Part shown: piece after piece, positions 12,194 through 57,855 of the stretch | Numbering within the stretch: the first letter of the stretch is position 1 | Layout of the letters: each line of letters opens with the position of its first letter | Source of the DNA: Chrysomallon squamiferum | Lineage: Eukaryota > Animalia > Mollusca | Length of the DNA: 64,000 nucleotides | Reading direction: 5' to 3' | Assembly: GCA_012295275.1 (NCBI GenBank) | Contig: CM022678.1 | Span: 62,001-126,000, forward strand | The notes under the pieces: generated by a model | Seen by the model: only the letters and a program-made list of their open reading frames with translations | Database searches by the model: none | Told to the model about the DNA's origin: nothing | Translations under genes and position numbers: made by a program

Positions 12194-12214
12194 TTCGTTC
12201 AGTTACGTATTACT
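12194..12214 (+). other. Oxford Nanopore ligation adapter remnant (artefact)
   Basis: ttcgttcagttacgtattact versus adapter end TTCGTTCAGTTACGTATTGCT. It sits immediately after the gap and is absent from the other copy at 48280. Confidence 0.92.
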
Positions 12215-12586
12215 GAGAAAACTTAAGAATATTTATTGAAACTATTGGTGACATCTGTTCATTTTCATTGTTTGTTCCAGCATTTAATAGTGAAAAATAA
12301 TAAATATAAGTTATTGAAACTACTTTTACATTGTTTGTTTTGTAATATAGTAAATTATTTTATGATATGTTCATTTTATATTGTTTATATGGCACGGTTT
12401 TGATATTAGGGTTGACAAAACTAAAAACTATAACTTAGTTACTATTCTGATATATTAAGTATTGTGACAAAATTAAAAGTATAACATAGTAAAACTGTTC
12501 TGATAGTTATTATATTTACATAATTTAATGAGTTGCAGTTCAGAAAACAGACTATAAGGCTTTGTGATAATGATTACATTTTGCAG

Positions 12587-14419: not shown

Positions 14420-16587
14420 GTAAGTTAAAAACTGAAAAGTTTTCTTTTGTGTGTCTGTTTAATATATAACACATCCGAGTGAGTGCAATACATCATCACG
14501 AGGAGACGAGTGCAGATTGTTATATATGAAAATATTTAGAATCCTCATCTAATATCTTTTCCAATACATCATGTATATAACTTGAAACTGACTAAGTTGT
14601 AGCAGTTTCTAATAATGTTTATGCAACAGAATACCCAAGTAACCAATGGCTTCAGGAAATATTCAGGAATTTCAGATTATAGAATTAAAAAACGTTGTTC
14701 TGGTGAATGCAGCAGGTCAGAAATATGAAAATGTGTCCAGATGCTAAAGCGATGGTCAGTGACAGATTAAAAACAGGTCTGTAAAAAAATACTTAGTAGA
14801 AGTATCAGTGTTATTAACATACTGAAGTGCACATTTCATATCATGTTTCAGAGTTTCAACTTTTATTATGATCTCATTATGTGCATACACTGAGATGGCA
14901 ATGTGTGTATGTATGTTTCTTGATAGATACAAAGATATTTGTAAAGTTGATGAAGGTTTTGTCCTGTTTTGGCACTCATGATCTTAGTGGATGTAACCTA
15001 AAACAGCAGTGAAGTACACAAGTAAAACCTAATTAACAGACAAGCTGACGTCACCAAGCTCACTCAGTAACTGTTTAGAAGTCATTTTACCGCAGTGTTG
15101 ACCTTCTAGCAACATAGCTAAATATTACCAGACAAAACTACTTATTTTCATTAAATCAAACACTGAGTCAAAGTTTTGACACCATTAATGTTGCCCAGAA
15201 CAAAGTCTGTGCTGCAGAGGTTACCCTAATAAAACCAAAACCTTGTTAACTAAGAAATTGTAATTTTGAGAGCAACATTAATATTTTTGATACAAGTAAT
15301 ATCATTTTTTCCTTTGAGTGAGGGGAGTAAAAGAAATGAAAAAATATTTTAATTGTTTTACCTGTTCGGAAATAGCTGTCCGATCTATGTGTGCAGGGCT
15401 GGAAATCAAAGCATTTTGTTTCATTTTAACTATTCTCGTTTTTTTACTTTAACAATTTCAAAAATTACTTATTATTCCTCTATAATTATCAAAGCAACAT
15501 TAATTATCCATAACACTTCCGGCTTTTACCTATGAAACTAAATAAATTACACTTTATTAACAGAAAAAAAACAGAAAGAAAGAAACTTTATATAACTGTA
15601 TTAATTTATTGCAGTCATAATCCTTAGTTGATATGTATTATTACTCATTTATAAACTATAATACATAATTTTAAGTAGTGTTACGGAAAAGAAAATGATT
15701 ATGCAAACATTTTTTGAATTACGTAGAATTTACACACACACAGACACATAAAAACATAAATAAATTAACACAAACATTCACACATACAAACATATTCAGG
15801 CATAGAAAAAGTTTTGACTGAGATTTTCTTCTTAAACTGTTGATATAACTCAACATGACTATATATGCCTGTCATTATTATCACCTGTAAATACTAAATA
15901 TACTGCAAAGCATACATAACATCAACAGCAACAACAACAACAACAATAATAATAATAACAATAACAACAGCAACAATAAACAGTGGGGCATCTAAGGCAC
16001 TCACAAGCGACCATTAATTAACACCATCGTCACGTAACCAAATTAGAACCCTTTATTGGGCATAACACTCTTCCTCCAAAATAACACTAACTATACATAG
16101 GAAACTCCCTGTATCGGGTAGATAGCTACCCAATTTGGCTTGACTCTAAGGCCATATATGTATTTATATTTAATGTTAAATCATTAGAAACACAAAAACA
16201 GAAGTTTGGATTAAAGAATATATGATCTAATAATAGTTATTTACCAAGTAAGCTTACAATGTCTGCACAGCCGATTGCAAACAGTTTTACGCCACAAAAT
16301 TCACATACTTGAACATGTGAGAGATATTTCATATGTTTAAACTAGGAAACCCCAAGATGTATTTGAAGATGCAAGTATATCAAACTAATGTTCTGTTTAG
16401 CAGGACATTGACGTGACAGTCAGTTAATAATAACACCATTGTGGTATCTATGTTTACAATTACTGATGGTCAGTGTTGATCTCAGATACCCACTATTCTC
16501 ACCCACTGTTTCAGAGATAACAGTCTACAGTTACTGTGATGAGTCTGATCTCAGATTACCAGCCGTGCTCCAAATTAATGGTTATAC

Positions 16588-16677
16588 CAGTGATTCTCAA
16601 CAAGTGTGCCGCGGCAATTGATTCTCAACCAGTGTGCCGCAAACTTTTGTAGAAAAACAGTTTGAGAAAAAACACGA
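16588..16677. mobile_element. Tiny hAT-derived remnant (also 52696-52786)
   Basis: cagtgattctcaac..gtgtgccgc.. at the left and gtttgagaaaaaacac at the right resemble the termini of the hAT at 59940-61547. No clean TSD. Confidence 0.5.
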
Positions 16678-17479
16678 TTGACTGACCTGTCATTCAGAAA
16701 CATGGAAAATCATTCTGTTGTTAATCATCACAAAGTTGTAATAACTTGTCACATGTTTTCACTCATTATTTCAGTGCTTAAATTTTCTCCAAGTGTATAT
16801 TTGTGACATTTCCATTTGTATTGTTTATATCATGTTTATATTGTTTATATATTTTGGGATCAATTCCTCCTACATTAATTTGAGTGAGTATAATTACAAC
16901 TATTCAGATATTATCTGTACATTTATATTGTTTATATAACAAAATTTTGTAATAGCATTAAGTTTAAGTTATTCTGATATTACTAGTGTTAATCCTATAT
17001 TATTTAACTCGCCCAACTGTGATTGTTCTACATGTTTTAACATTATTTGCAATTTGTGATGGTTTTCAAAGAAAAACAGAAAGATTTAAATTCGAACATT
17101 TTCAGTATGATAAAATTTTAGAAGACAGTCTATAAGATTAAAACTAGTATTAATACAAGGAACTAGATGTAGGTCTCTAGAAGAGTATGCAAGATGTAGG
17201 AGGTTTTGGGATCAATTCCTCCTGATAGAATCTTGAGCTGTTTCTATTTTAGCAGTGCAGAACAACTGAGTTATGAAATAGTAACTGTCTGTGGGTAGGT
17301 ATAAATGTAATAAGAAATAGTGGACTGTGAAGTGACAACACAGGGTTTTTTCTTGTATTATCTAAATGTTCCTTAATCTTATGTCTAACCTCATATAAAT
17401 AAAAAAAAATTCTTCCTTCTGTTAAAAAAAACACAACAAAAGAAAATAAAAACTCAAATCCTTATATTACTTTTTACAG

Positions 17480-17781
17480 TTCAACCAATACAGATGACAA
17501 AAAAGAGTTCAAAAAATCTTTCTAGCATCACAGCTGATTTTTCCTCTGACAACATCACAGCTGAGTCTTCCTCTGACAACATCACAACTGAGTCTTCCAT
17601 TGACAACATCACAGCTGATTCTTCCTCTGACAACATCACAACTGAGTCTTCCATTGACAACATCACAGCTGAGTCTTCCTCTGACAACATCACAGCTGAG
17701 TCTTCCATTGACAACATCACAGCTGAGTCTTCCTCAGGCAACATCACAACTGAGTCTTCCTCGGACAACATCAATCCTAGA
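17480..17781 (+). CDS. Gene A exon containing a 27-bp minisatellite (Ser/Thr/Asp-rich DNITAESSS repeats); second copy 53592-53893
   Basis: tttttacag|ttcaacc ... cctaga|gtaatt. About 9 copies of gacaacatcacagctgagtcttcctct. Homologous to the 74-nt exon 27044-27117 of gene B. Confidence 0.6.
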
Positions 17782-17989
17782 GTAATTTTTATTTATGGTA
17801 ATACATAGAGCATTTCAATATATTATTTTCTTTATTGATTGGAAACTCTAAGCAGAATTATTATTTGTATCTGTTCCAATGCAGTTTTCAATATATTGTT
17901 TTGATGAGGCAATTCTAATCTGACAAAATTATTATTTATATCTGTAACTGTCTTATATTGTTTACTTTTCTAAAAAGATTATTTGTAAA

Positions 17990-18795
17990 CTGACATTTTT
18001 TTCTGATTTAAACTGATAATAAATTAACAACTGAAAAGGTTTCATGTACTCTCTTACAGGCAAACGTAGCAAAAATAATAAATTTAAAAAATAGACTAAT
18101 TATTGTTTCATCATAACTATTATAATTATTCTTGTGTTGACCATTATTTATTTTAATGTTGTAAAGCAATGCTCACATCAAATGTTATCTATGTATAATT
18201 AGTTAGCATTACTAAAGACAGTTGTTAAAACATATATTGCTATATTCTGTAATACTGTTCACACAGACTGTATTATACTGTATGCTGCCATATCTCTATA
18301 GATAGATAAAAATTTTCTATATTCTTAGAAATCATGCACTGAAGTTACAGAAATGTTTTTACTCTGTTTCACAGGATCAACGGTGATAAATAACATTAGC
18401 AGTCAGATTTGTCAATTCAGACATGACAATACAGCCAGTAAGTTAAAGACTGACATTTTTTTCTGATTTAAACTGATAATAAATTAACAACTGAAAAGGT
18501 TTCATGTACTCTCTTACAGGCAAACGTAGCAAAAAATAATAAATTTAAAAATAGACTAATTATTGTTTCATCATAACTATTATAATTATTCTTGTGTTGA
18601 CCATTATTTATTTTAATGTTGTAAAGCAATGCTCACATCAAATGTTATCTATGTATAATTAGTTAGCATTACTAAAGACAGTTGTTAAAACATATATTGC
18701 TATATTCTGTAATACTGTTCACACAGACTGTATTATACTGTGTGCTGCCATATCTCTATAGATAGACATGACAATACAGCCAGTAAGTTAAAGAC
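17990..18795 (+). repeat. ~460-bp tandem duplication of an intron plus micro-exon cassette; second copy internally deleted
   Basis: ctgacattttttctgatttaaactgataat starts at ~17991 and ~18450. The second copy joins gataga to catgacaatacagcca|gtaagt. Confidence 0.9.
18375..18437 (+). CDS. 63-nt phase-1 micro-exon, STVINNISSQICQFRHDNTA (RHIM-like); second copy 54485-54547
   Basis: tttcacag|ga ... gcca|gtaagt, with an open frame. Confidence 0.6.
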
Positions 18796-19664
18796 TAAAA
18801 CTGTTCTCTTCTCTACATTTTTAATAGGTAACAGTCATGAATTTAGATTGCTGTCAGTGCCATAACATTCCGTAATAGATTATCAAAAGGCTGTTATCAT
18901 AAAAATTAAATATGTATCTTTGATTAGCAACTGAACTGTAGCCCATATTAGATTTCATGAATTAGTGTCCTTGTCCATAACTATTGATGAGATATTTCCA
19001 CTTTCCAACAGCAAAATACAAACAGTTAAATATTATAAATTCCACAAAGTATTACAAATTGCGGGCCATTTATTAGATACATGTACACTCTGTATACATT
19101 TCTGTATTTATAAACCTGGTGGGGGCTTGTCATATTTTGGTTCACACTTTCTTAATGGATGACTAAAAAAAACTAATCACCAGGCAAGTTCATGTCACCA
19201 AACTCATTTGGTCATTTCTGATTTTCAGAAATCATTTTACTACAGTGCAGACTTTCTAGCAACTACTTAGCTAAATTATTAACTACAAAACTATTTTTCA
19301 TTAAATAGAAGAAAGTGTTATACATTTATTTTGGTATCAAACAATAAAAGCAAGTAGTAATCTGCCACTCACAGCAGTTAAATAGTCTCTCTCTCTCTCT
19401 GTGTGTGTGAAACCTAATCACTTAAACATGGTCATATAACTGGCATTTCCTTGACCAATAACATGTCACATATAGAAATGCATACATGTATACTAATCAA
19501 ACATAATTTAAACATGTAGTTTGTGGACAGTATAACACATACTAGTTACAAAATAATAGTTGAAGGATCAATTTTTTTTTAACATGGATATTACAGTTAC
19601 TTTTCTATAAAATCAACACAATTACTACACACATGCATATTCAGAACTGTCTAATGAGTAATAT

Positions 19665-20815
19665 CTCCACATTTCAGTTCTTGATAAAGAAGTAGGGAAG
19701 ATAAAAGGGATGAAACTAAAATGCTAGAAATCCTGGTTAATTCTGGAAATCCTGTGGATATAATAAATGACAAAAACAATAAAGGTGAAACAGCTTTGAT
19801 TGTAGCTCTGAAAAACCATTGTAGACAGAAAGCTGGTTTTTTACTGGAATGTGGAGCTGATCCTTGTGCATCAGACGATGATAGAAATTCTGTTTTGCTT
19901 CTAGCTGCTAAACAAGGATATTTTGAAATTGTGAAACAATTGATTAAGAAAGGAGTTGATGTGAATACTAAAAACAGTACAGGTGAAACTCCTCTGTTTA
20001 CAGCTGTTAAGTATGAACAGAACAAAGTAGCGTTGTATTTACTGGAAAATGGAGCTGATCCTAATTTAACAGACAATGATGAAAATTCTGTTTTACACCT
20101 AGCAGCTAAATGTGGAAATAGAGAAATTGTGACAGCACTGATTGGAAAAGGTGTTAATGTAAATATTAGAAACATTACAGGTGAAACTCCTGTTTTAACA
20201 GCTGTTAAGCATCAGCAGAAGGGTATAGTTTCATATTTACAGGAAAATGGTGCTGATCTTACTATAAAAGACAATGATAACAATTCTGTTTATCACCTAG
20301 CAGCTAAATAAGAAAATGTAGAAATTGTGACAAAATTGATTGAAAAGATGTTGATATAAATATTTGTAATGGAACCTCATTAATGCCTTTTTGCCAGGCT
20401 TGTTTTTAATCGAAATTTTGTCTTCTATGTAGTGAATTATATAATATTCGTAAAACACTTATTTTTATAAGTGGTAATTATGGTATACATTTTAATATTA
20501 CAGTCTGTTATCCTTTAGACAGGAGGAGCCAAATTTTAGGTATTAATACCAATTAAGCTAATCTCCGTACAGGGGAAACTCCTCTTTCTACAGCTGTTAA
20601 GTATAAACAGAAACGTGTAGTTTTGTATTTACTGGAACGTGGAGCTGTTCTTAATTAACAACATCAGCTCCATGTTCCAGTAAATACAAAACTACACATT
20701 TCTGTTTTACACCTAGCAGCTAAACATGGAAATATAGAAATTGTGAGAGTATTGATTGAAAAAGGTTCTGCTGTAAATATTTTCAGTCAAGGTAAATCGC
20801 CCTTTCATGTAACAT
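19665..20815 (+). pseudogene. Ankyrin-repeat region of gene A (ORF 19721-20311, then a stop, a frameshift and a ~195-bp insertion)
   Basis: GETALIVA, NSVLLLAA, GETPLFTAV, NSVLHLAA, GETPVLTAV, NSVYHLAA repeats with LLENGADPN/GVDVN. The TAA at 20309 is present in both copies. Repeats resume at ~20567. Confidence 0.85.
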
Positions 20816-21099
20816 GAAATTAAATGTATATCTGATGCACAAGCATTGAGCAGTCTGAAAAAAAGAAAAACAAAACAGAAGTTTTGTATTAATATTGAGA
20901 AATTTATGAATATAAATAAATGAAACTATTCTAATATTGTCTATGTATTTTCATTGTTTATATAACTTAGTTTACTAAAATTATTCTTAAGATATGTGCA
21001 TATATATTTTTTATATAACACATTGTGGTACTAGGATTGACAAAACTAAAATATAACTTAGTAAAGTATTTTGATAATTATTATATAATTTTACAATAG

Positions 21100-22090
21100 A
21101 TGATAAAATAAAAATGTTACAAAAAAGATAGTGAAACCTGACTGTTTTGATGTTCTTGCTCATGAGTTTACTGACTTGCTGGCATCAAATAATGCCAGAG
21201 AAATTATTTCACATCCATCACTGAAAGATGAAGGGTTTGTAAAGTATCTCATAGGGGAAAAACATTTTGGTGGTAGACTGTCTGAAATACTGCATCAGAA
21301 ACTTTTTGAAAATGCATTTCATAAAAACAGTCCTCATTCAATACTTGCTCAAAAGAAATATTTTTATATATCAGTAGAAATATTTCATGTCTTCTTGACA
21401 ATGAGTCAAAAACTATATCTAGTTACATGTGGTATTTGGAAGTTGAAGACACTTTTAATTTTCATTCACTGTTCCAAGTGAGTGCATTGTGAATAGACAA
21501 AGAACATTAAGATTGTTCACATCAAATCTATGTAAAATGAAACTAACGTGTTTGAAAAAAGAACTTTTAGATATTTCTTGTTTGTTTGGTGATGAAGATA
21601 TTGTGAGAATGTTGCTAAAATCAGGTGTTACACCAACATTTGATACACTGAATGCAGCTGCTTGTTCAAAAACAGACAGTGCTACCATACTCAAAGAACT
21701 GTTACAGTATAAAAAGAAGATGAAATTGAATATTTGTTCTCACTTGTTACATATTTCAATTTGTTCAGGTAACATGAACATTGCCTGTCTGTTGGCTGAG
21801 ATGATAAACAATGAGAAACAGTGAAATAAAGGAAAAAGTTGTAAAACTTTTATTGGTTAGGTTCCAAAGTACTTCAAGTGTTATAAAAGAAATAGTAAAA
21901 CTGAAACCTGATTGTGTAAATGATGAGAACAGAGATAAAGTACTTTTAGCAGCAGCAATGTGGGGATCTACTGATACAGTGAATGTTCCCACTGAACAGA
22001 GATGTAATGATACAGATGGAAACAACTGAAAGAAAAGTGAAATACTGAAAGTGGTAAGTGATATTTAACACTGTAGATGTTGTTCAGAAA
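21100..22090 (+). pseudogene. Degenerate helical plus ankyrin-like coding relic
   Basis: Overlapping ORFs 21131-21481, 21489-21824 and 21811-22029 with LLDISCLFGDEDIVRMLLKSG, LLHISICSGNMNIACLL and VLLAAAMWGSTDTV. A paralogous piece lies at 43040-43230. Confidence 0.6.
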
Positions 22091-27043: not shown

Positions 27044-27117
27044 CTCAACCAACAGTGATTATGAAAAAATGTGTTCAGCAATTTTATCTGACATCACAGA
27101 TGTGGCATCCTCAAAGA
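27044..27117 (+). CDS. Gene B small exon (STNSDYEKMCSAILSDITDVASSK)
   Basis: tttttaacag|c ... aaga|gtatga. Same donor context as 48677-48747. Confidence 0.55.
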
Positions 27118-27479: not shown

Positions 27480-27581
27480 TTAGAAGAACACAACCACTAG
27501 TAAAACATAATGTAAATATCAGCACAGTTCACAATTACCAGGATGTGTCTAATAACAGGAATGTTGTGTTTGGAAATCAAG
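27480..27581 (+). CDS. Gene B exon with RHIM-like motif (RRTQPLVKHNVNISTVHNYQDVSNNRNVVFGNQ)
   Basis: tttactcag| phase-1 acceptor and open frame. It is followed by the same ttaaaaactgaaagtt intron head as the gene A micro-exons. The donor is degraded or one base short. Confidence 0.55.
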
Positions 27582-28102
27582 TTATTAAAAACTGAAAGTT
27601 AAAAACTGAACGTTTTCTTTTCTCTACCTGTTTAATAAATAACAAAATACACACCACACTAGTCATTAGTACTTTTCTGTCATTCACTGTGACATGACCA
27701 GCACAGAAACATGCACACACAGGCACAATACATACAAACATTCATTCACACATAAATTATAAGTATTGTTATTCTCATTTAGATTTTATGTTTAATATTT
27801 TATTAATATAATTCAACCTAATTTAAACAACCCAATACAGATGTCATTATTAGTAGTAGCAAGAACATAGTAATAATAATAACACTGTGAACAATAACAG
27901 TACATAATTAACAACATGTAAAAACAAATAAAAGTAGTGGTTTTAATAAATAATTAATAAGTAAAAAGATCCAACAGTAATAATATTACATGTTTATTGT
28001 TTCATGAATAAAGTGTAGAGTAATTGTAAAGATCACTTTAATCATTCTCTTTTACACAACATCAATAATATAAATTTACTTGTTTATTTTTTGTTACTTC
28101 AG

Positions 28103-28132
28103 CAACTGATGAACAAGCATCCAATATCAAAG
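28103..28132 (+). CDS. Gene B 30-nt phase-1 micro-exon (TDEQASNIK); decayed duplicate at 28912-28944
   Basis: ttacttcag|ca ... aaag|gtatat. Confidence 0.55.
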
Positions 28133-29196: not shown

Positions 29197-30350
29197 AGTA
29201 TACCAGGTCAGTGTTAAACTCAGTTGACTGGAGTGTCTATGTTGAAACAAGAGCAGAGAAAAGAGGTGTTGAACTTTTGAAGAAACATGGTGTTGTGATT
29301 GTAGTAGGATGTCCAGGTTCAGGAAAAGACAACTCTAGCTTTGAGGATGATGAGAGAGATAGAAAAAGAAGAAAAAAGAGAATCTTACTCACTGACTCAT
29401 CACTATGAATTCAATGACATCTCTCTATTTAGAAATAAGAAATTTGTTGTTCTCATTGATGACATATTTGGTAAGACTAATCTTGTTTCATATTTTAGAG
29501 ACTCATGGAAACCGAAATTTATAAAGGTGTGGAGTCTTGTTCAGGATGGTTCTTTGAAATGTATTATTACTTTAAGAAAACAAATATTTTCAGAAACTAA
29601 AACTAGTTTGAAGAAATTTGGTCTGTTTAATGAGAATCATGTTTTTGATCTCTGTTGTCTGAATTATTATGAAAAGGAACAAATTCTAAACAAATATCTT
29701 AAAAAACACAATGTTACCGTGAATGAAAATGGTAAAAAAGACTGTCATTTACAATTCATTTACAGAGTTAGGATTTCCTCAGATGTGTGTGTATTATGTT
29801 AATTCAAGTGATGCACAAAAAAAAGAGGAGTTGAGTTTTTAAGAAACCTGTAGAGTATCTCAGACAAGAGCTGGAAAATTTGAAAACTGACAAAACTTTA
29901 CAGATCAATTATCTGGTTCTACTGCTGATTTTGTTCAAAGAAGGCAGTCTCAGCATTGATTCACTGGACCCATTTAAAAATGACTCTGACAGTGACATAA
30001 TGAAATTAATAAGGTTGCTAGAGCAAGTCTGCCCGAGTCTGAAAAACACTGGTCTTAGAGATATAAAGAAAACAGCTGATGTAATGTGTGGTACCTATTT
30101 GAAGTGTTGTGAGAATAAATACACATTTATTCACCAGTCAGTAATTGACTGTTTGTTTCTGATGTTTTCAGTAGAGTTTTCAAAGAAAGCAGCAGAGTTT
30201 CTAGAAGTGAGTCCTGTCTCCATGTTGTTAGAATATGTTGTTCAGTGTCGTCTTGGTAAAGGAGCTGATCCTAATCTGAATGCAGATGTTAACCAGAAAC
30301 TGATTCAACAGTTTGAAGAGGAAATTAAATTAAAACTGTGGTCTGATGAC
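29197..30350 (+). pseudogene. STAND-class P-loop NTPase (nSTAND3-like) plus helical/winged-helix region of gene B; frameshifted as assembled
   Basis: Phase-1 acceptor gatgcag|ag. Motifs: YVET, VVIVVGCPGSGK[TTLA] (Walker A, restored by removing one A at ~29325), FVVLIDDIFG (Walker B), CIITLR (sensor 1), LGFPQMC (GxP, shifted frame), GTYL..YTFIHQSVID. Confidence 0.85.
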
Positions 30351-30374
30351 AAAACTAGTTTAAATTTGTCCACT

Positions 30375-31590
30375 TTAGACTCACCTCTCCACATTTCAGT
30401 TCTGCGTGGTGACTTAGATATGTTAAAATCACTAATAAAGAGAAATGCTGATGTTAACATGAGTAAACAGTGAGGAAAACTCCACTTCATGAAACTGTAA
30501 AAAGCAGTGAAACACAGAAAGGAAGTAGCTTTGTTGTTACTGCAAAATGGTGCTGATACTAATATAACAGATAAAAAAAATAATTCAGCACTGCACATAG
30601 CATCTCAAATTGACATAAAAGTGGTAAAAGAAGTAGTAAAAAAAGGTGTTCAAATAAATGTAATTAACACTGAAGGTCAAACTCCTCTTTTTTTGTCCTT
30701 ATACAGTAACAAACCAGAAATAACTTCATACTTACTGAAACATGGAGCTGATCCTAATTTAACAGACATTCATAACAATTCTGTTTTACACTTAGCAGCT
30801 GAACATGGAAATCTAAAAATTGTGAGAGCACTGATTGAAAAAGGAGTTGATGTAAATATTAAAAACGGTCAAGGTGAAACTCCTCTTTTTACAGCTGTTA
30901 AGTATGAACATTGCAAAGTAGTTTTGTATTTACTGGAACATGGAGCTGATCCTCATTCAAAAGACAATAATAACAATTCTATTTTACATTTAGCTAAAGC
31001 ATGGAAATAGAAAATATTGTGACAGCTCTGATTGAAAAACATGTTGATGTAAACATTATAAACAGAAGTGGTGACACTCCTCTTTTTTGCAGCTATCAAG
31101 TATGGGCAGAACAAAGTAGTTTTGTACTTACTGGAAAATGGAGCTGATCTAATTTAAAAGACAGTGATGAAAATTCTGTTTTACACATAGCAGCTATACA
31201 AGAAAAATCTAGAACTTTTGACAGCACTGATTGAAAAAGAATTTGATATAAATGTTAGAAACAGTAAAGGTGAAACTCCTCTCTTTACAGCTCTGAATTA
31301 CTACAAATATGATTTTTACAAGCACCCACCAGCTGTGTAAATGTCGTAATAATGAAACTCTCAGAAGTAATTTTGTATTTACTGGATCATGGAGCTGATC
31401 CTAATATAACAGACAATGATAACAATTGTGTTTCCCAACAGACAGCTTATTGTGCAAATCTAACAATTATGAGAAAACTAACTGAATGAGGTGTTGATGT
31501 AAATGTTATTAATTCAATTGAAAAACTCCTATTGATATAGCTAACAGTTGCAGATTTCATCCGTAACAAGGAAATTGTCTTTACTGAATG
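30375..31590 (+). pseudogene. C-terminal ankyrin repeats of gene B (~11-12 repeats; ORF 30507-31010 plus frameshifted flanks)
   Basis: SPLHISV, NSALHIAS, GQTPLF, NSVLHLAAEHGNLKIVRALIEKGVDVN, GETPLFTAV, GDTPLF. Stops and indels lie between segments. AATAAA at ~31716. Confidence 0.85.
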
Positions 31591-46699: not shown

Positions 46700-47561
46700 T
46701 ATTTTTAACTCCTTAAGTAAATCTACTATTGACGGTTAAAGTTATAATTTCTTTGTTCTTGGAATTTGAGACAGAAATAATAATATAAAAGGCTTCTAAT
46801 AAACGGCCCCCTCCGATAAAAGAAAAAAAAGTAGCGGGTTATTGTCTGAATGCAGTTGAATGTTTACTTGTCATTGAACTCTCAAACTACAGATGTAACA
46901 CAGAGTCTCAAAAGTAACATTTTCTCTCTGCATCAGCTTTTTAAACTATTTTATGGACTCTGCAGCTCCATACGTTGAAATGTTTTGTCTTTAGTATTAG
47001 ATGGGACAGGTGATTATGTGATAATACTTTGATAAAAATAATCTGACACTTAATACAACAGTGGGTTGTTTCCCAACTCAAATTCTCTGTTTACTGTAAT
47101 GTATTTGTAAAAAAAAAGGTTTACTAGTCACTCAGAGCGTTTTTCCAGATAAATATAACAATAAATTTAAAACAGATGTCACTCTTTTGTGTTCAGATAA
47201 TTTAACACTTGAGTTCTTCAGTAGACCACACTTTCAGCTTTGCTCATATTTAACTGTATTCAGTTACTTACTTAATACGACATATTTCTGGAACAAATAA
47301 TTATAAAATAGTGAGAAATACTTCAAATCCGGATAATGCTGAAACATGTTGTACAAGATTGTTTTTTTCATCATTGTGTCTGTTTGTATAAACACACTGA
47401 GAATATGTTGCTTTCAGCTTTCAATAATCTGCAACATTCTCCATTCCAAATCTTGATCACTTCATGATTTCATGTTAATGTACGGACACATTTTCTCTCT
47501 TCTGTGGTTAGCATCTTGAAAAAAAATAATTAAAGCCAATACAGTATTTACTCTTTCACAG

Positions 47562-47624
47562 GAGGATAACTGGCAACAAACATAATTAACAGTCCACATG
47601 CTCATATAGAAAACAATCAACTGC
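47562..47624 (+). pseudogene. Dead RHIM-like micro-exon (G*LATNIINSPHAHIENNQL)
   Basis: tttcacag| acceptor, 63 nt, in-frame TAA, donor mutated to ataagt. Clearly related to 50470-50529. Confidence 0.65.
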
Positions 47625-47756
47625 ATAAGTTAACTGTTTTGTGGACCGGATTTTAAGTTCATTTTACACCGGGTTAACAACGCCTGAAATCAGAATGGTT
47701 TATTACTTTGATATGGGATGAAATGAATTACATTACTGATAAAAGTGATATTATAC

Positions 47757-47799
<43 letters not shown>

Positions 47800-48676
47800 T
47801 CCATTCCTTTTATACAGCTGTTCTGACTATATACAAGACCCAGTGGTAACCCAAATGTGCTCCAGCATTTTCAAATCTGGACTCATGACTGGCCAAGGCA
47901 GAATTGTTAAAACTTTGTTTTATAGTTGGGCTGTTACTTGATGAGATTACCAATGACAGTGATTGTAGTGAAGTTGATACCCAGTACATTTGCTGGACAT
48001 CATTTTTGTATCCATTCCTTTTATCTGCCATATTTTTGCCTCTGATGTCCTCCTTCATGTAATATATACTGTGAATGACACAATACAATGGAGTTAAATA
48101 TGCATATATGATGTAGAATATTCTGCAGTTTGGAAAACTCATGGGTGGACATTGGTAAGTTTTCACTTATGGTGTTTGTATAACTTAATTTAGTACTGAT
48201 ATTGAGAAAACTGAGCATATAACTTACTAAAAGTATTCTGGTGTTATCTATATATTTCCATTGCTTATGTTACAATTTAGTTTTAGTACTGAGAAAACTA
48301 AGAATATGTTTTATTGAAACTATTATGATAGTATCTGTTCATTTTCATTGTTTATTTAACTTAATTTAATATTAGTATTGAAAAATATGTAAATATAAGT
48401 TATTGAAACTACTTTTACATTGTTTGTTTTACTTAATATAGTAAAATTATTTTATGATATGTTCATTTATATTGTTTATATAGCACAGTTTGATATTAGG
48501 GTTGACAAAACTAAAACTATAACTTAGTTACTATTCTGATATATTAAGTACACTTGACAAAATTAAGAGTATAACATAGTAAAACTGTTCTGATAATTAT
48601 TATATTTACATAATTTAATAGTGCAGTTCAGAAAACAGACTATAAAGGCTTTGTGATAATGATTACATTTTTACAG

Positions 48677-50529
48677 GTCATACCAACAAGATAACATAAA
48701 AAGTTCAGAAGTATCTTCTAACAGCAGAAATGTCTCTTCTTCAGAGAGTATGACAAAATTGTTTATATCTTTATCAATCAGTATACATAAATCTAGTGCT
48801 TACCTTTGGATAAGAAATTCGAAATGGACAAAATTATTATTTATGTGTAACGATGTAGCTTTTAAATTGTTGTTTACTTTTTATTATCATTTGTAAACTG
48901 ACACTTTTCTGATTTATATTGTAAATAAATTAACAATTTAAAGGGTTCTAAGTACTTTCTGACAGACGAAATTAAAAAAAATAATAATAATAAAAAAATA
49001 AATAAAAAAATAACATAAAATAAAAATAATTGCATACTAATTACTCCTGACTATTATAATTATTGTGTTCACCATTATTTACTGTAATGCTTAGGTCATA
49101 TGTCACAACATCTATGCATAATTAGTTAACAATACTAAGCACATTTGTTAAGAAACACATATTGCTGTATTCAGTAATACATTTTAGACAGACTGTATTA
49201 TACTGTATGTTGCCATATCTCTACATACAGATTAAAAACATTTGCTGTGTGTTACAAACATGCAGACATTCATTACATAGACACACACAAATATATTCAG
49301 AGACACATGTGTGCTGTCATATCTCTACATATATATAAAACAGTTTTTTGTGTTTCAAAAATTGCTACAACATTTTATAATTATATCTAATTCTCAGTAT
49401 TTTGCAGGTAAAAACATTTTTTGAAATTATGCATTGAAGTTGTGAATTATAAAAGTGTGTTTACTCTGTTTTACTGCAGGACTAATGTCAAGTAATATAT
49501 ATCATTCTGGTTCTACTGAAATGACAGGTAACACTATACCCGGTAAGTTAAAAACTGAAAGTTTTCTCTTCTCTATATATTTAATAGTGTAACAGAATAC
49601 ACAGTAGACATTAGTACTTTGCTATCAGACACTGTTACCTGAATAACATTGAAACACGCACATAAATAGAAAGATACAATAAATATAAACATACATACTT
49701 GTACCTACAGTTAGCTCATACACAGAAAACAGACATACACAGACATACACATAAATACATTCAGACTGAGACACACTATATGTATGTTAAACTGTATGCT
49801 GTCATGTTTCTACATATATATAAAAACATTGTTTTGTTTTTCAAAAATTGCTACATTTTATAATTATATCTAATTCTCAGTATTTTGCAGATAAAAACAT
49901 TTTTAGAAATTATGCATTGAAATTGTGAATTATAAAAAAGTATTTGCTCTCTTTCACTGCAGTACAACTGCCAGCAGATGCATCTCATTCTGTTTCTTCT
50001 CAAATAGGAAATAACTATGTATCCGGTAAGTTAATAACTGAAAGTTTTCTGTTCTCTACATGTTTAATAGATAACAGAATACATACTAAATATTAGTACT
50101 TTTTTCTCAGACACTGTGACCTGAACAACATAGAAAGATGCACATTAATACATAGACACAATACATATGAATATACATACCTGTACCTACATTTAGCACA
50201 TACACAGAACACATACATACACATATATATATGCAGACGTGCAGTACACAGATATACACACAGATATATTCAGACTGAGATACAGTGTATGTATGTTAAA
50301 CTGCATGATGTCATATCTCTTACATATATATAAAATCAAAATGTGTTTCAAACACTGGTGCTGCATTTAATAATTACATCTAATTCACAGAATCTTGCAG
50401 GTAAAACATTTTTAGATATTATGCATTAAATTTATGAATAATAAAATATATATTTACTTTGTTTCACAGGACAGTCCTTAATAAACATAATTAACAGTCC
50501 AGGTGCTAAAGTAGGAGATATTAAACTGA
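48677..50529 (+). CDS. Gene A micro-exon chain (48677-48747, 49480-49542, 49963-50025, 50470-50529)
   Basis: Canonical AG/GT boundaries; lengths 71, 63, 63 and 60 nt. Spliced frame is open: SYQQDNIKSSEVSSNSRNVSSSE-RLMSSNIYHSGSTEMTGNTIP-VQLPADASHSVSSQIGNNYVS-GQSLINIINSPGAKVGDIKL. Confidence 0.7.
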
Positions 50530-53500
50530 GTAAGTTAAAAACTGAAAGTTTTCTTTTGTGTGTCTGTTTAATATATAACACATCACGAGTGCAATACACA
50601 TCACGAGGAGACGAGTGCAGATTGTTATATATGAAAATATTTAGAATCCTCATCTAATATCTTTTCCAATACATCATGTATATAACTTGAAACTGACTAA
50701 GTTGTAGCAGTTTCTAATAATGTTTATGCAACAGAATACCCAAGTAACCAATAGCTTGCGGAAATATTCAGGAATTTCAGATTATAGAATTAAAAAACGT
50801 TGTTACGGTGAATGCAGCAGGTCAGAAATATGAAAATGTGTCCAGATGCTAAAACGATGGTCAGTGACAGATTAAAAACAGGTCTGTAAAAGAAATACTT
50901 AGTAGAAGTATCAGTGTTATTAACATACTGAAGTGCACATTTCATATCATGTTTCAGAGTTTCAACTTTTTATTATGATCTCATTATGTGCATACACTGA
51001 GATGGCAATGTGTGTATGTATGTTTCTTGATAGATACAAAGATATTTGTAAAGTTGATGAAGGTTTTGTCCTGTTTTGGCACTCATGATCTTAGTGGATG
51101 TAACCTAAAACAGCAGTGAAGTACACAAGTAAAACCTAATTAACAGACAAGCTGACGTCACCAAGCTCACTCAGTAACTGTTTAGAAGTCATTTTACCGC
51201 AGTGTTGACCTTCTAGCAACATAGCTAAATATTACCAGACAAAACTACTTATTTTTCATTAAATCAAACACTGAGTCAAAGTTTTGACACCATTAATGTT
51301 GCCCAGAACAAAGTCTGTGCTGCAGAGGTTACCCTAATAAAACCAAAACCTTGTTAACTAAGAAATTGTAATTTTGAGAGCAACATTAATATTTTTGATA
51401 CAAGTAATATCATTTTTTCCTTTGAGTGAGGGGAGTAAAAGAAATGAAAAAATATTTTAATTGTTTTACCTGTTCGGAAATAGCTGTCCGATCTATGTGT
51501 GCAGGGCTGGAAATCAAAGCATTTTGTTTCATTTTAACTATTCTCGTTTTTTTACTTTAACAATTTCAAAAATTACTTATTATTCCTCTATAATTATCAA
51601 AGCAACATTAATTATCCATAACACTTCCGGCTTTTACCTATGAAACTAAATAAATTACACTTTATTAACAGAAAAAAAACAGAAAGAAAGAAACTTTATA
51701 TAACTGTATTAATTTATTGCAGTCATAATCCTTAGTTGATATGTATTATTACTCATTTATAAACTATAATACATAATTTTAAGTAGTGTTACGGAAAAGA
51801 AAATGATTATGCAAACATTTTTTGAATTACGTAGAATTTACACACACACAGACACATAAAAACATAAATAAATTAACACAAACATTCACACATACAAACA
51901 TATTCAGGCATAGAAAAAGTTTTGACTGAGATTTTCTTCTTAAACTGTTGATATAACTCAACATGACTATATATGCCTGTCATTATTATCACCTGTAAAT
52001 ACTAAATATACTGCAAAGCATACATAACATCAACAGCAACAACAACAACAACAATAATAATAATAACAATAACAACAGCAACAATAAACAGTGGGGCATC
52101 TAAGGCACTCACAAGCGACCCGTAATTAACACCATCGTCACGTAACCAAATTAGAACCCTTTATTGGGCATAACACTCTTCCTCCAAAATAACACTAACT
52201 ATACATAGGAAACTCCCTGTATCGGGTAGATAGCTACCCAATTTGGCTTGACTCTAAGGCCATATATGTATTTATATTTAATGTTAAATCATTAGAAACA
52301 CAAAAACAGAAGTTTGGATTAAAGAATATATGATCTAATAATAGTTATTTACCAAGTAAGCTTACAATGTCTGCACAGCCGATTGCAAACAGTTTTACGC
52401 CACAAAATTCACATACTTGAACATGTGAGAGATATTTCATATGTTTAAACTAGGAAACCCCAAGATGTATTTGAAGATGCAAGTATATCAAACTAATGTT
52501 CTGTTTAGCAGGACATTGACGTGACAGTCAGTTAATAATAACACCATTGTGGTATCTATGTTTACAATTACTGATGGTCAGTGTTGATCTCAGATACCCA
52601 CTATTCTCACCCACTGTTTCAGAGATAACAGTCTACAGTTACTGTGATGAGTCTGATCTCAGATTACCAGCCGTGCTCCAAATTAATGGTTATACCAGTG
52701 ATTCTCAACAAGTGTGCATGGCAATTGATTCTCAACCAGTGTGCCGCAAACTTTTGTAGAAAAAACAGTTTGAGAAAAAAAACACGATTGACTGACCTGT
52801 CATTCAGAAACATGGAAAATCATTCTGTTGTTAATCATCACAAAGTTGTAATAACTTGTCACATGTTTTCACTCATTATTTCAGTGCTTAAATTTTTCCA
52901 AGTGTATATTTGTGACATTTCCATTTGTATTGTTTATATCATGTTTATATTGTTTATATATTTTGGGATCAATTCCTCCTACATTAATTTGAGTGAGTAT
53001 AATTACAACTATTCAGATATTATCTGTACATTTATATTGTTTATATAACAAAATTTTGTAATAGCATTAAGTTTAAGTTATTCTGATATTACTAGTGTTA
53101 ATCCTATATTATTTAACTTCAAGCCCAACTGTGATTGTTCTACATGTTTTAACATTATTTGCAATTTGTGATGGTTTTCAAAGAAAAACAGAAAGATTTA
53201 AATTCGAACATTTTCAGTATGATAAAATTTTAGAAGACAGTCTATAAGATTAAAACTAGTATTAATACAAGGAACTAGATGTAGGTCTCTAGAAGAGTAT
53301 GCAAGATGTAGGAGGTTTTGGGATCAATTCCTCCTGATAGAATCTTGAGCTGTTTCTATTTTAGCAGTGCAGAACAACTGAGTTATGAAATAGTAACTGT
53401 CTGTGGGTAGGTATAAATGTAATAAGAAATAGTGGACTGTGAAGTGACAACACAGGGTTTTTTCTTGTATTATCTAAATGTTCCTTAATCTTATGTCTAA

Positions 53501-55764
53501 CCTCATATAAATAAAAAAAAATTCTTCCTTCTGTTAAAAAAAACACAACAAAAGAAAATAAAAACTCAAATCCTTATATTACTTTTTACAGTTCAACCAA
53601 TACAGATGACAAAAAAGAGTTCAAAAAATCTTTCTAGCATCACAGCTGATTTTTCCTCTGACAACATCACAGCTGAGTCTTCCTCTGACAACATCACAAC
53701 TGAGTCTTCCATTGACAACATCACAGCTGATTCTTCCTCTGACAACATCACAACTGAGTCTTCCATTGACAACATCACAGCTGAGTCTTCCTCTGACAAC
53801 ATCACAGCTGAGTCTTCCATTGACAACATCACAGCTGAGTCTTCCTCAGGCAACATCACAACTGAGTCTTCCTCGGACAACATCAATCCTAGAGTAATTT
53901 TTATTTATGGTAATACATAGAGCATTTCAATATATTATTTTCTTTATTGATTGGAAACTCTAAGCAGAATTATTATTTGTATCTGTTCCAATGCAGTTTT
54001 TCAATATATTGTTTTGATGGGCAATTCTAATCTGACAAAATTATTATTTATATCTGTAACTGTCTTATATTGTTTACTTTTCTAAAAAGATTATTTGTAA
54101 ACTGACATTTTTTTCTGATTTAAACTGATAATAAATTAACAACTGAAAAGGTTTCATGTACTCTCTACAGGCAAACGTAGCAAAAATAATAAATTTAAAA
54201 ATAGACTAATTATTGTTTCATCATAACTATTATAATTATTCTTGTGTTGACCATTATTTATTTTAATGTTGTAAAGCAATGCTCACATCAAATGTTATCT
54301 ATGTATAATTAGTTAGCATTACTAAAGACAGTTGTTAAAACATATATTGCTATATTCTGTAATACTGTTCACACAGACTGTATTATACTGTATGCTGCCA
54401 TATCTCTATAGATAGATAAAAATTTTCTATATTCTTAGAAATCATGCACTGAAGTTACAGAAATGTTTTTACTCTGTTTCACAGGATCAACGGTGATAAA
54501 TAACATTAGCAGTCAGATTTGTCAATTCAGACATGACAATACAGCCAGTAAGTTAAAGACTGACATTTTTTTCTGATTTAAACTGATAATAAATTAACAA
54601 CTGAAAAGGTTTCATGTACTCTCTTACAGGCAAACGTAGCAAAAATAATAAATTTAAAAAATAGACTAATTATTGTTTCATCATAACTATTATAATTATT
54701 CTTGTGTTGACCATTATTTATTTTAATGTTGTAAAGCAATGCTCACATCAAATGTTATCTATGTATAATTAGTTAGCATTACTAAAGACAGTTGTTAAAA
54801 CATATATTGCTATATTCTGTAATACTGTTCACACAGACTGTATTATACTGTGTGCTGCCATATCTCTATAGATAGACATGACAATACAGCCAGTAAGTTA
54901 AAGACTAAAACTGTTCTCTTCTCTACATTTTTAATAGGTAACAGTCATGAATTTAGATTGCTGTCAGTGCCATAACATTCAGTAATAGATTATCAAAAGG
55001 CTGTTATCATAAAAATTAAATATGTATCTTTGATTAGCAACTGAACTGTAGCCCATATTAGATTTCATGAATTAGTGTCCTTGTCCATAACTATTGATGA
55101 GATATTTCCACTTTCCAACAGCAAAATACAAACAGTTAAATATTATAAATTCCACAAAGTATTACAAATTATATTTTTATTAGATACATGTACACTCTGT
55201 ATACATTTCTGTATTTATAAACCTGGTGGGGGCTTGTCATATTTTGGTTCACACTTTTCTTAATGGATGACTAAAAAAAAACTAATCACCAGGCAAGTTC
55301 ATGTCACCAAACTCATTTGGTCATTTCTGATTTTCAGAAATCATTTTACTACAGTGCAGACTTTCTAGCAACTACTTAGCTAAATTATTAACTACAAAAC
55401 TATTTTCATTAAATAGAAGAAAAAGTGTTATACATTTATTTTGGTATCAAACAATAAAAGCAAGTAGTAATCTGCCACTCACAGCAGTTAAATAGTCTCT
55501 CTCTCTGTGTGTGAAACCTAATCACTTAAACATGGTCATATAACTGGCATTTCCTTGACCAATAACATGTCACATATAGAAATGCATACATGTATACTAA
55601 TCAAACATAATTTAAACATGTAGTTTGTGGACAGTATAACACATACTAGTTACAAAATAATAGTTGAAGGATCAATTTTTTTTAACATGGATATTACAGT
55701 TACTTTTCTATAAAATCAACACAATTACAAATGCATATTCAGAACTGTCTTAATGAGTAATATC

Positions 55765-56890
55765 TCCACATTTCAGTTCTTGATAAAGAAGTAGTGGAAG
55801 ATAAAAGGGATGAAACTAAAATGCTAGAAATCCTGGTTAATTCTGGAAATCCTGTGATATAATAAATGACAAAAACAATAAAGGTGAAACAGCTTTGATT
55901 GTAGCTCTGAAAACCATTGTAGACAGAAAGCTGGTTTTTACTGGAATGTGGAGCTGATCCTTGTGCATCAGACGATGATAGAAATTCTGTTTTGCTTCTA
56001 GCTGCTAAACAAGGATATTTTGAAATTGTGAAACAATTGATTAAGAAAGGAGTTGATGTGAATACTAAAAACAGTACAGGTGAAACTCCCTCTGTTTACA
56101 GCTGTTAAGTATGAACAGAACAAAGTAGCGTTGTATTTACTGGAAAATGGGAGCTGATCCTAATTTAACAGACAATGATGAAAATTCTGTTTTACACTAG
56201 CAGCTAAATGTGGAAATAGAAAATTGTGACAGCACTGATTGGAAAAGGTGTTAATGTAAATATTAGAAACATTACAGGTGAAACTCCTGTTTTAACAGCT
56301 GTTAAACATCAGCAGAAGGGTATAGTTTCATATTTACAGGAAAATGGTGCTGATCTTACTATAAAAGACAATGATAATTCTGTTTATCACCCAGCAGCTA
56401 AATAAGAAAATGTAGAAATTGTGACAAAATTGATTGAAAAGATGTTGATATAAATATTTGTAATGGAACCTCATTAATGCCTTTTGCCAGGCTTGTTTTA
56501 ACGAAATTTTGTCTTCTATGTAGTGAATTATATATATTCAGAAACACTTATTTTTATAAGTGGTAATTATGGTATACATTTAATATTACAGTCTGTTATC
56601 CTTTTAGACAGGAGGAGCCAAATTTTAGGTATTAATACCAATTAAAGCTAATCTCATTAGGGAAACTCTTTTCTACAGCTGTTAAGTATAAACAGAAAAC
56701 GTGTAGTTTTGTATTTACTGGAACGGAGCTGTTCTTGATTAACAACATCAGCTCCATGTTCCAGTAAATACAAAGACACATTTCTTTACACCCAACAGCT
56801 AAACATGGAAATATAGAAATTGTGAGAGTATTGATTGAAAAGGTTCTGCTGTAAATATTTTCAAATCAAGGTAAATGCCTTTCATGTAAC
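55765..56890 (+). pseudogene. Second, error-rich copy of the gene A ankyrin region
   Basis: Same sequence as 19665-20815 with extra homopolymer indels. Confidence 0.8.
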
Positions 56891-57855
56891 ATGAAATTAA
56901 ATGTATATCTGATGCACAAGCATTGAGCAGTCTGAAAAAAAAAAAAAAACAGAAGTTTTGTATTAATATTGAGAAATTTATGAATATAAATAAATGAAAC
57001 CATTCTAATATTGTCTATGTATTTTCCACATTGTTTATAACTTAGTTTACTAAAATTATTCCAAGATATGTGCATATATATTTTTTATATAACACATTGT
57101 GGTACTAGGATTGACAAAACTAAAATATAACTTAGTAAAGTATTTTGATAATTATTATATAATTTTACAATAGATGATAAAATAAAAATGTTACAAAAAA
57201 GATAGTGAAACCTGACTGTTTTGATGTTCTTGCTCGCAGGTTTATTGACTTGCTGGCATCAAATAATGCCAGGAGAAATTATTTCACATCCATCACTGAA
57301 AGATGAAGGGTTTGGCAAAAGCATCTCATGAGGAAAACATTTTGGTGGTAGACTGTCTGAAATACTGCATCAGAAACTTTTTGAAAATGCATTTCATAAA
57401 AACAGTCCTCATTCAATACTTGCTCAAAAGAAATATTTTTATATATCAGTAGAAATATTTCATGTCTTCTTGACAATGAGTCAAAAACTATATCTAGTTA
57501 CATGTGGTATTTGGAAGTTGAAGACACTTAAATTTCATTCACTGTTCCAAGAGTGCATTTTAATAGATGAAGAACATTAAGATTGTTCACATCAAATCTA
57601 TAAAATGAAACCATAATTTGGTTTGAAAAAAAAAGAACTTTAGATATTTTTGTTTGTTTGGTGATGAAGATATTGTGAATGTTGTTAAAACTAGGTGTTG
57701 TACCAACATTTGATATTAATTAATGGTTTTGTTCAAAAACAGACAGCTACTATACTCAAAGAACTGTTACAGTATAAAAGAAGATGAAATTAAATATTTG
57801 TTCTCACTTGTTACATATTTCAATTTGTCTTAGGTAATATGAACATTGCTCATCT

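Follow-up and report, generated by a model that had tools for sequence, protein, structure and literature searches.

The 64,000-nt window of Chrysomallon squamiferum DNA (the whole stretch analysed) carries symmetric micro-exons that were probably multiplied with their intron cassettes and diversified as N-terminal parts of a molluscan nSTAND3-ankyrin (NLR-like) protein family, each likely encoding a degenerate RHIM-type amyloid signalling motif. The probability of this reading as a whole is put slightly under one half (about 0.47). Its most solid element, absent from the first-pass annotation, is the excess of amino-acid changes between two of the exons, e1 and e2.

Micro-exons and their intron cassettes

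The five exons e0, e1, e2, e3, and e5 and their peptides lie where the first-pass annotation had placed them, on the forward strand as all features below. Four are live: e1 (49480..49542, with an in-frame ATG at 49485), e2 (49963..50025, containing Q-I-G-N-N) and e5 (54485..54547) are 63 nt in length, and e3 (50470..50529), whose peptide is the most RHIM-like, is 60 nt. All four are symmetric phase-1 exons with CAG upstream and GTAAGT downstream, and of the three frames only phase 1 is open. The fifth, e0 (47562..47624), had been called dead, in agreement with its TAA at codon 2 and its ATAAGT donor; it is without read cover, and its exon DNA is nearest to e3 (65% identity).

That the exons are chance AG/GT units was rejected on two grounds. 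A blind two-strand scan for AG-exon-GTRAG units of 45–93 nt (multiples of 3) returned 18 candidates, 8 of them open in phase 1, and 6 of these 8 were the reported exons or their twins. Further, 25.8% of 7123 local intron 63-mers were open in the phase-1 frame, and by arithmetic from this rate all four live exons would be open by chance with a probability of ~0.004. The stretch around e3 was also matched with 0 differences by contigs of two DNA runs, X1 and X2, of two studies.

The repeated intron cassette reported for the core trio e1, e2, and e3 was found again, with spacings of 483 and 507 bp. Cassette flank identities were 87–90% for e1/e2, 76–79% with e3, 60–68% for e5, and 52–67% for e0, compared with a background of 51% (95th percentile 59%), so the e0 cassette is barely recognisable. 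The earlier proposal that symmetric cassettes can duplicate without frameshift is supported. Moreover, the region 48284–57849 has a 97% identical twin at 12208..21784 that carries all four live exons, e2 in identical sequence; substitutions between the two copies are 0–9 per kb in the mid-region, and the ends, beside N gaps, are noisy. The DNA runs contain many paralogous cassettes, and an exact scan of JGI metagenomes with the donor-side cassette motif gave 0 matches.

The two genes and their family

The first-pass annotation had overlooked this twin, a Ser-rich exon between e3 and e5, an ankyrin exon, and an NTPase-bearing paralogue. The Ser/Thr/Asp-rich exon S2 (53592..53909, 318 nt, symmetric phase 1, ATG at 53606) is built from 9.2 copies of a 27-bp unit and contains 9 N-x-S/T sites; a mucin-like secreted stalk was considered from these sites and rejected, as ankyrins lie downstream and no membrane segment was evident by eye. 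A further short Ser-rich candidate exon, S1 (48677..48747, 71 nt), is open if read from phase 2 to 1, has ATA at the homologous start codon position, lacks read cover, and is of uncertain status. The ankyrin-repeat exon of this gene, termed gene A (55777..56405), uses a phase-1 acceptor within former coding sequence and ends at a TAA at 56403; most of the 1-nt slips that it shows in this copy stem from assembly errors, and the twin ORF at 19688–20308 matched Ank_2 with an E of 1e-35. Past the gene A stop, the middle domain typical of the nSTAND3-ankyrin family lies displaced at 57175..57849, as located by alignment with the twin, in which tblastn placed residues 758–979 of the relative P0001 at 21146–21812. 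Gene A has lost the NTPase, and no promoter was found for it.

Transcript evidence for gene A came from one shallow RNA run. One RNA contig matched 53818–53908 in S2 exactly and then departed from the genome; RNA depth in the e5 bin equalled ~64 nt of this contig and was 0 in the adjoining bins. By this depth arithmetic, the contig would fit splicing from S2 to e5 to the ankyrin exon. The core trio had no cover in this run, in which contigs show presence only, so the missing cover is no proof of silence.

The paralogue, gene B, at 27–31 kb, places the same cassette ahead of an nSTAND3 NTPase and ankyrins. It comprises a Ser-type exon (27044..27117), a longer homologue of the cassette exon (27480..27596) that contains V-V-F-G-N-Q and has a damaged donor, a symmetric phase-1 exon of 30 nt (28103..28132), and a region of nSTAND3 NTPase, winged helix, and ankyrin repeats (29197..31513) with several frameshifts and stops. 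The intron downstream of its cassette exon is 74–77% identical to the downstream introns of e1 and e2. The NTPase was assigned to PF20720 (E 4.5e-15), and ankyrin families were matched as well. Its closest relatives are gastropod proteins, with 37–47% identity to Gigantopelta aegis proteins, and its direct homologues are molluscan nSTAND3-ankyrin proteins (G. aegis XP_041374008.1 and XP_041374894.1; Haliotis; Solemya; Potamilus), to which the NTPase piece is 45–47% identical. An exhaustive homologue search with the NTPase piece found 67 proteins, a word-indexed search retained 0 of 342 candidates, and a P0006 search of the ESM Atlas gave nSTAND3/AAA clusters only. Although frameshifted in the assembly, gene B has the order of N-terminal motif, STAND NTPase, and repeats. 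The gene family is NLR-like, a setting in which amyloid signalling motifs are expected. Its members, for which the only names are uncharacterised or ankyrin protein, have highly varied N-termini: before the NTPase some carry a similar motif, and others HEPN, caspase-like, or coiled-coil regions. Gene A differs from them in having several motifs and no NTPase.

Amino-acid divergence and RHIM resemblance

Between e1 and e2, 21.3 of 44.8 non-synonymous but 0.7 of 15.2 synonymous sites differ (Fisher P 0.003), with dN 0.75 and dS 0.05, and the differences at codon positions 1, 2, and 3 number 12, 8, and 2. In the flanking introns 38 of 316 positions differ (12%), and the exon non-synonymous excess over introns had a P of 2e-7; a codon-model test gave P 0.0005, with omega at the upper bound set for the fit. 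Assembly error was rejected as the source, because both copies in the window agree in the coding bases, and old exons within homogenised introns were rejected because dS is no higher than the distance between the introns. By counting, dN exceeded dS significantly in only 3 of 6 exon pairs, and pN also lay near pS in the ankyrin controls. Overall, the findings favour diversification in the course of evolution, by selection, cassette duplication, and exon swapping, over a demonstrated splicing code.

The resemblance of the peptides to RHIMs was scored at 10 RHIM positions taken from a mutational-scan preprint, against composition-matched shuffles. The P values were 0.0016 for e3, 0.026 for e2, 0.07 for e0, 0.24 for e1, 0.38 for the gene B exon, and 0.81 for e5; the four live exons together gave a best-of-four P of 0.004 and a joint P of 0.0017. 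The first-pass claim of a RHIM-like motif in each exon was overstated: two of the five, e3 and, weakly, e2, beat their shuffles, and e1, e5, and e0 do not. Its count of 8 of 14 positions aligned with the RIPK3 RHIM was correct by eye for the two strings it gave. The highest-scoring register coincides with the DNA-homologous one in four of the five exons (e0, e1, e2, and e3). In that register, all six peptides have N/D at i+1 and a hydrophobic residue at i+10, while S is kept at i+5 in 5/6, G at i+11 in 3/6, and Q at i+9 in 2/6.

The RHIM core tetrad is (V/I)-Q-(V/I/L/C)-G, and the cryptic RHIM core is V-x-x-G (PMC13506858); the former was present in none of the six peptides and the latter in the gene B exon alone. 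RHIMs carry hydrophobic residues at i, i+2, i+8, and i+10 (10.64898/2026.02.19.706818), a set complete in 0/6 peptides, with three of the four in e3, e5, and the gene B exon. A strict six-feature pattern count was not significant for the exons (joint P 0.12). Both e3 and e0 have a proline within the motif, and prolines within the RHIM lower nucleation according to the mutational-scan preprint. In searches that had no positive control for 20-residue queries, Pfam at E 10 returned no family for the six motif peptides and none in 20 relatives, and PDB searches by peptide and profile returned no RHIM chain; a phage capsid match in the PDB (E 0.27) was taken as chance. The ESM Atlas returned nothing for the gene B exon.

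Similar stretches directly before the NTPase were found in relatives. P0064 gave P 0.006–0.009, and P0030 has two canonical tetrads directly before its NTPase (0.22 expected in the group). The first tests on relatives were non-significant (strict count, 3 observed vs. 3.0 expected among 31; combined P 0.18). In a narrower window, 25 linker-only relatives gave a combined P of 0.010, and the 15 whose N-terminal domain is folded gave 0.81; this grouping of related sequences was made by eye after those first tests. A window-only profile gave a weak signal, with combined P values of 0.006 (25 linker-type) vs. 0.14 (15 folded) and one sequence below 0.05 in each group. In a de novo motif search on 26 N-termini, width 12 beat 8/8 shuffled sets and width 14 beat 7/8, and e3 and the gene B exon matched at P 0.01–0.03, with no score for e2 and e5; this result is weak because it is inflated by Haliotis paralogues. 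Within the 64-kb window, no effector with the same motif turned up. CARD-RHIM proteins exist in bivalves and in a bivalve virus (PMC12452177).

Alternative readings and proposed function

The tripwire logic of NLRP1/CARD8 offers a model for another function, in which the exons would be hypervariable disordered bait in the N-terminus of an NLR-like sensor, attacked by pathogen proteases or effectors and selected for variety rather than amyloid formation. Strong amino-acid diversification suits such an arms race better than a partner-matching motif, and the missing canonical tetrad and the varied N-termini of relatives agree with it. However, the i+1, i+5, and i+10 pattern is kept, the RHIM register is shared by most of the exons, relatives have canonical or near-canonical cores, and gene A lacks the NTPase through which a cut would be relayed, so we consider a bait unlikely.

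A relic reading is likewise doubtful; under it, the trio, and possibly gene A as well, would be remnants of a tandem array in decay, with copies that are unspliced or part of a transcribed pseudogene and a selection signal from ancestral receptors. Such decay would account for the dead e0, the S1 without ATG, the damaged donor and frameshifts of gene B, the scrambled domain order, an ankyrin frame that stops after about six repeats, the trio's lack of RNA cover, and the failure to find a homologue of the gene B first exon near gene A. In contrast, all four live exons retain frame and both splice sites, a later S2 donor restores the frame, the exapted ankyrin acceptor is in frame, many 1-nt slips are assembly errors, and the RNA run is shallow.

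The first-pass proposal that alternative skipping yields isoforms with different amyloid motif sets and partners was not borne out and is quite improbable: the exons are all symmetric, their peptides are strongly unlike one another, and no stop arises at any of the 15 junctions that skipping could form between e1, e2, e3, S2, e5, and the ankyrin exon, but the single informative RNA contig includes e5 with no skipped junction seen, the GTAAGT donors are strong, and duplication alone also explains the symmetry.

If the amyloid reading holds, full-length receptors would work much as fungal NLRs and Branchiostoma RHIM-NACHT proteins do: a ligand bound by the ankyrins would oligomerise the NTPase and bring the motifs together, and the gathered motifs would template a cross-beta fold onto a partner. 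Selection may diversify the motif for escape from pathogen decoys or separation of paralogous channels. Gene A, with at most four motifs, a Ser-rich spacer, about six ankyrins, and no NTPase, may act as an adaptor or decoy with several motifs. The number and identity of motifs would shift through duplication and exon swapping between cassettes, possibly with regulated skipping.

Similar to fungal and bacterial NLRs (NWD2/HET-S, PP, BASS3) (PMC4262963; PMC9815663; 10.1101/2020.01.06.895854), a short polar/aliphatic motif is combined here with a STAND NTPase and repeats including ankyrins. Unlike them, this is an animal gene family in which the NTPase is of nSTAND3 type, each symmetric exon holds one motif, and several divergent motifs stand in series; no central G-phi-Q-phi-G is present, and no neighbouring gene for an effector that has the motif was seen. 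Metazoan RHIM proteins (RIPK1/3, ZBP1, Branchiostoma RHIM-NACHT-repeat, Drosophila cRHIM, Pirk) share the ~20-residue motif in disordered context, and two or three RHIM copies occur in ZBP1 and several invertebrate proteins, with a RHIM-NACHT-repeat architecture in Branchiostoma (PMC4262963). RHIM domains are highly conserved according to the mutational-scan preprint; unlike them, the motifs here have no canonical tetrad and diversify under selection, and the exon-per-motif layout is unmentioned in the accessible parts of the metazoan RHIM literature. In Schistosoma micro-exon genes (MEGs) and truffle NACHT-ANK mini-exons, short symmetric exons also vary without frameshift, but skipping is documented there; the former genes are secreted and mostly micro-exon, and the latter exons are 3 bp and vary a C-terminal sensor (PMC4015677; PMC9815663). 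Gene A falls outside the MEG class (mostly micro-exon coding, signal peptide, documented skipping), with 249 nt in micro-exons vs. 318 + 629 nt in longer exons and no skipping seen. Conotoxin genes, also gastropod, have a single hypervariable exon that is under positive selection and flanked by conserved introns (PMC3862624); they encode secreted disulfide toxins without sequence relation to these exons, and the analogy is evolutionary only.

A review poses the question whether the RHIM is the sole signalling amyloid in animals (PMC7889193). If the exons are amyloid, molluscan nSTAND3-ankyrin proteins would be NLR-like receptors that signal through amyloid in the fungal style, and this set of exons would be a natural library for the minimum substitutions that give a new seeding specificity. 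It is a speculative and rather improbable extension that amyloid motifs, each a mobile, positively selected exon cassette, wire an extensive NLR-like immune system in molluscs, in which NTPase-less genes like gene A would collect several divergent motifs and, through duplication, swapping, and skipping, decide between which receptor channels a bridge or a block is placed. Amyloid or not, ~21 amino-acid-changing differences against 1 silent difference between the 20-codon exons e1 and e2 indicate that an unstudied family of immune genes is under intense selection at this site.

Cassette exons and the selection acting on them

The five 60–63-nt symmetric phase-1 exons proposed in the first-pass annotation, e0 (47562–47624), e1 (49480–49542), e2 (49963–50025), e3 (50470–50529) and e5 (54485–54547), were confirmed. 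A blind AG/GTRAG scan returned 18 candidates, eight of which were open in phase 1, and six of these eight were the above exons or their twins. Both other frames are closed in each of the four live exons (e1, e2, e3 and e5); the frame that these exons keep open is also open in 25.8% of 7123 intron 63-mers from the surroundings. Exon e0 is dead, its second codon being a stop and its donor inactive. Homology of the cassettes, that is, exons with their repeated intron flanks, is strong within the trio e1–e3 and near background for e0, which is surrounded at 47141–47758 by an inverted copy of the first-intron sequence (24885–25414) of the paralogous gene B. Around e5, a 318-bp duplication (54101–54416 and 54559–54876, 99% identical) leads into another copy of the e5 3′ part (54874–54892), which has a GTAAGT donor of its own at 54893; a contig of the DNA run X1 over this place has about double depth, and the arrangement looks like a cassette duplication in progress.

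Between e1 and e2, the flanks are 87–90% identical and the exons 63%. The two exons differ at 21.3 of 44.8 non-synonymous vs. 0.7 of 15.2 synonymous sites (P = 0.003), with 12, 8, and 2 differences by codon position, while the introns differ at 38 of 316 sites (compared with the non-synonymous rate, P = 2e-7); a codon model rejected omega = 1 (P = 0.0005). Among the six exon pairs, which are mutually dependent and comprise 18–20 codons each, three were significant by site counting (e1/e2; e1/e5, P = 0.035; e2/e5, P = 0.010) and four by the codon model, and no significant selection signal was found for e2/e3 and e3/e5. Ankyrin controls gave pN/pS of 0.7–1.3, indicating that the family as a whole is weakly constrained, yet e1/e2, at about 11, stands apart. 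The selection signal is solid, and selection acts in at least one exon pair. Further, the e3 exon is nearer to e0 (65%) than to e2 (51%), whereas its introns are nearer to e1/e2 (76–79% vs. 60–65%), and its synonymous sites have diverged too; this mosaic suggests that exon swapping or intron homogenisation may have occurred.

All four live exons lie in a block (48284–57849) that in the window self-comparison is 97% identical to a twin at 12208–21784. The blocks, 9.6 kb each and 36 kb apart, each adjoin one of the two N gaps of a noisy assembly; their middle parts carry 0–9 substitutions per kb relative to each other, and small indels are numerous toward the error-rich, gap-adjoining ends. Short-read contigs agree with whichever copy sits farther from the gap, so the twin, which arose either by tandem duplication very recently or as an assembly overlap left uncollapsed, does not count as independent evidence. 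The window consists of AT-rich animal DNA (GC 22–36%) with minisatellite arrays at 1378–1930, 34714–35035 and 35925–36678 (units of about 104, 54 and 56–57 bp, respectively) and two transposon-like remnants, at 46025–46579 (minus strand) and 59940–61560. By eye, we take the former to be a Tc1-type transposase piece and ORF 60755–61255 in the latter to be of hAT/zinc-finger-BED type; a Pfam search with this ORF gave no confident family.

An NLR-like family and the NTPase loss in gene A

Gene A, which carries the live cassette exons, belongs to an NLR-like family and has lost the NTPase. Its paralogue gene B (27–31.5 kb) comprises, in order, a Ser-type exon, a longer cassette-exon homologue, a 30-nt exon, nSTAND3 (PF20720, E 4.5e-15) and ankyrins. 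A promoter-like, GC-richer stretch at 24400–24520, with a donor at its end (about 24518), is the probable first exon of gene B, and no homologue of it was found near gene A. The family's middle domain (residues 758–979 of the relative P0001) is absent from gene B and displaced behind the ankyrins of gene A, a scrambled locus. Between e3 and e5, gene A has the 318-nt Ser-rich exon S2 (53592–53909), 9.2 copies of a 27-bp unit with nine N-x-S/T sites, whose donor lies 16 nt beyond the ancestral donor, restoring the frame; relatives P0004 and P0005 have short N-terminal repeats too. After e5, the ankyrin exon starts at 55777 in phase 1, with a stop at 56403 in both copies. Its acceptor (55769–55777), which falls within a stretch coding in gene B (30383–30410), is a splice site exapted after the NTPase loss. 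Beyond the stop, the decayed ankyrins contain a short inverted ankyrin piece (20592–20721 and 56677–56800).

Among 1.84 billion representative proteins, 67 relatives were found, of which 20 were named: eight from Gigantopelta aegis, ten from Haliotis (two assigned by like names) and one each from Potamilus and Solemya, the seven best-matching all being from G. aegis, which makes a gastropod the likely host. In molluscan nSTAND3-ankyrin proteins (relatives P0001–P0095), N-termini are swapped freely among short motif linkers, HEPN, caspase-like, coiled-coil and membrane-anchor types, as they are in fungal NLRs.

Likeness of the exons to RHIMs

The RHIM is defined by a core tetrad, with VxxG as a cryptic form (PMC13506858), and ten residue positions are given by a mutational scan (10.64898/2026.02.19.706818). 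Among six peptides (the five exons and the gene B cassette exon), the tetrad occurred in none and VxxG in one (strict-pattern joint P = 0.12), and Pfam and PDB searches with the exon peptides, run without a positive control, gave no RHIM match. RHIM substitution scores gave P values of 0.0016 for e3 (weakened, as the RHIM hypothesis was picked after seeing e3), 0.026 for e2, 0.07 for e0, 0.24 for e1, 0.38 for gene B and 0.81 for e5, and 0.004 for the best of the four live exons; the best RHIM register equals the DNA register in e0–e3. The proposal of one RHIM-like motif per exon is supported for e3 and more weakly for e2, and is not supported for e1, e5 and e0.

The relatives were tested after omission of cluster duplicates, four unrelated matches, and proteins without a Walker A match or with an N-terminus of <30 residues. 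A crude RHIM count gave 3 vs. 3.0 expected of 31, and a window of 200 residues put 2 of 31 under 0.05 (combined P = 0.18; NTPase-core control, 0 of 31), both null outcomes. The 80 residues before the NTPase gave a modest signal: combined P was 0.010 for 25 linker-only vs. 0.81 for 15 folded relatives, as grouped by eye (rank test, 0.015), and two canonical tetrads were found, both in one relative, vs. 0.22 expected. We read the resemblance as real but degenerate: the exons may work like a RHIM, without RHIM membership.

RHIM-NACHT-repeat proteins of Branchiostoma and invertebrate proteins with two or three RHIM copies have been described (PMC4262963), in a paper whose main text mentions neither mollusc nor exon and whose figure alignments or supplements may include molluscan sequences. 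Motif–NLR pairs of fungi and bacteria (PMC7889193, PMC9815663, 10.1101/2020.01.06.895854), an iridovirus that has captured a bivalve CARD-RHIM protein (PMC12452177), symmetric micro-exons (PMC4015677) and a hypervariable exon within conserved introns (PMC3862624) are also described. Among the best literature matches, covering few subscription papers, neither RHIM-like motifs in molluscan nSTAND3 proteins nor a one-motif-per-exon layout was found.

Transcription, paralogous cassettes and possible roles

Four of nine sequencing runs, one of the nine being RNA, were compared over 49100–56600. Over 53818–53908, RNA contig 27 (245 nt, depth 3.9) is identical to the genome, which it then leaves; RNA depth is 0.99 in the e5 bin, equal to 63.7 nt at depth 3.9, zero in the bins either side, and 3.9 again at 55837–55845. 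Judged from these depths, with no RNA-run row among the 15 of 156 joint rows listed, the contig fits splicing of S2 to e5 to the ankyrin exon through an in-frame donor and acceptor (92 + 63 + 90 = 245). The ankyrin bin holds 109 nt-equivalents, vs. 90 or fewer expected from contig 27, which requires a contribution from a further contig. In e1, the e2 5′ part and the e3 bin, the positions listed have RNA depth 0; the last e2 base has 2.6, in a shallow run with intronic contigs present too.

In X1, summed depth over e1 and e2, which is no measure of copy number, is 1834–2221 vs. 45–93 for single long contigs, and 14 contigs share one alternative letter at 49455; in the DNA run X3, where long contigs have depths of 3–12, a 66-nt e2 variant with the 5′ third replaced is carried by a contig at depth 158. 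Many paralogous cassettes exist. Internal exon changes among the 40 of 475 rows listed were two missense and two silent.

Judged from sequence, an amyloid role of the exons is likely. In the reading that we prefer, at a probability of just under one half, the motifs would template amyloid, and gene A would act as an adaptor or decoy. By analogy with a tripwire, the exons may instead be a hypervariable bait; the e1/e2 divergence would suit one, the RHIM resemblance of e3 speaks for amyloid, and we consider a bait improbable. Similarly doubtful is a relic array, which dead e0 would fit and the four live exons would not. A combinatorial splicing code is less probable still and has no support so far, no exon skipping having been seen in the one shallow RNA run; the feature itself is real, and the first-pass interpretation of it is partly right. 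The NLR-like context is as solid as the selection signal, and both can be tested directly.
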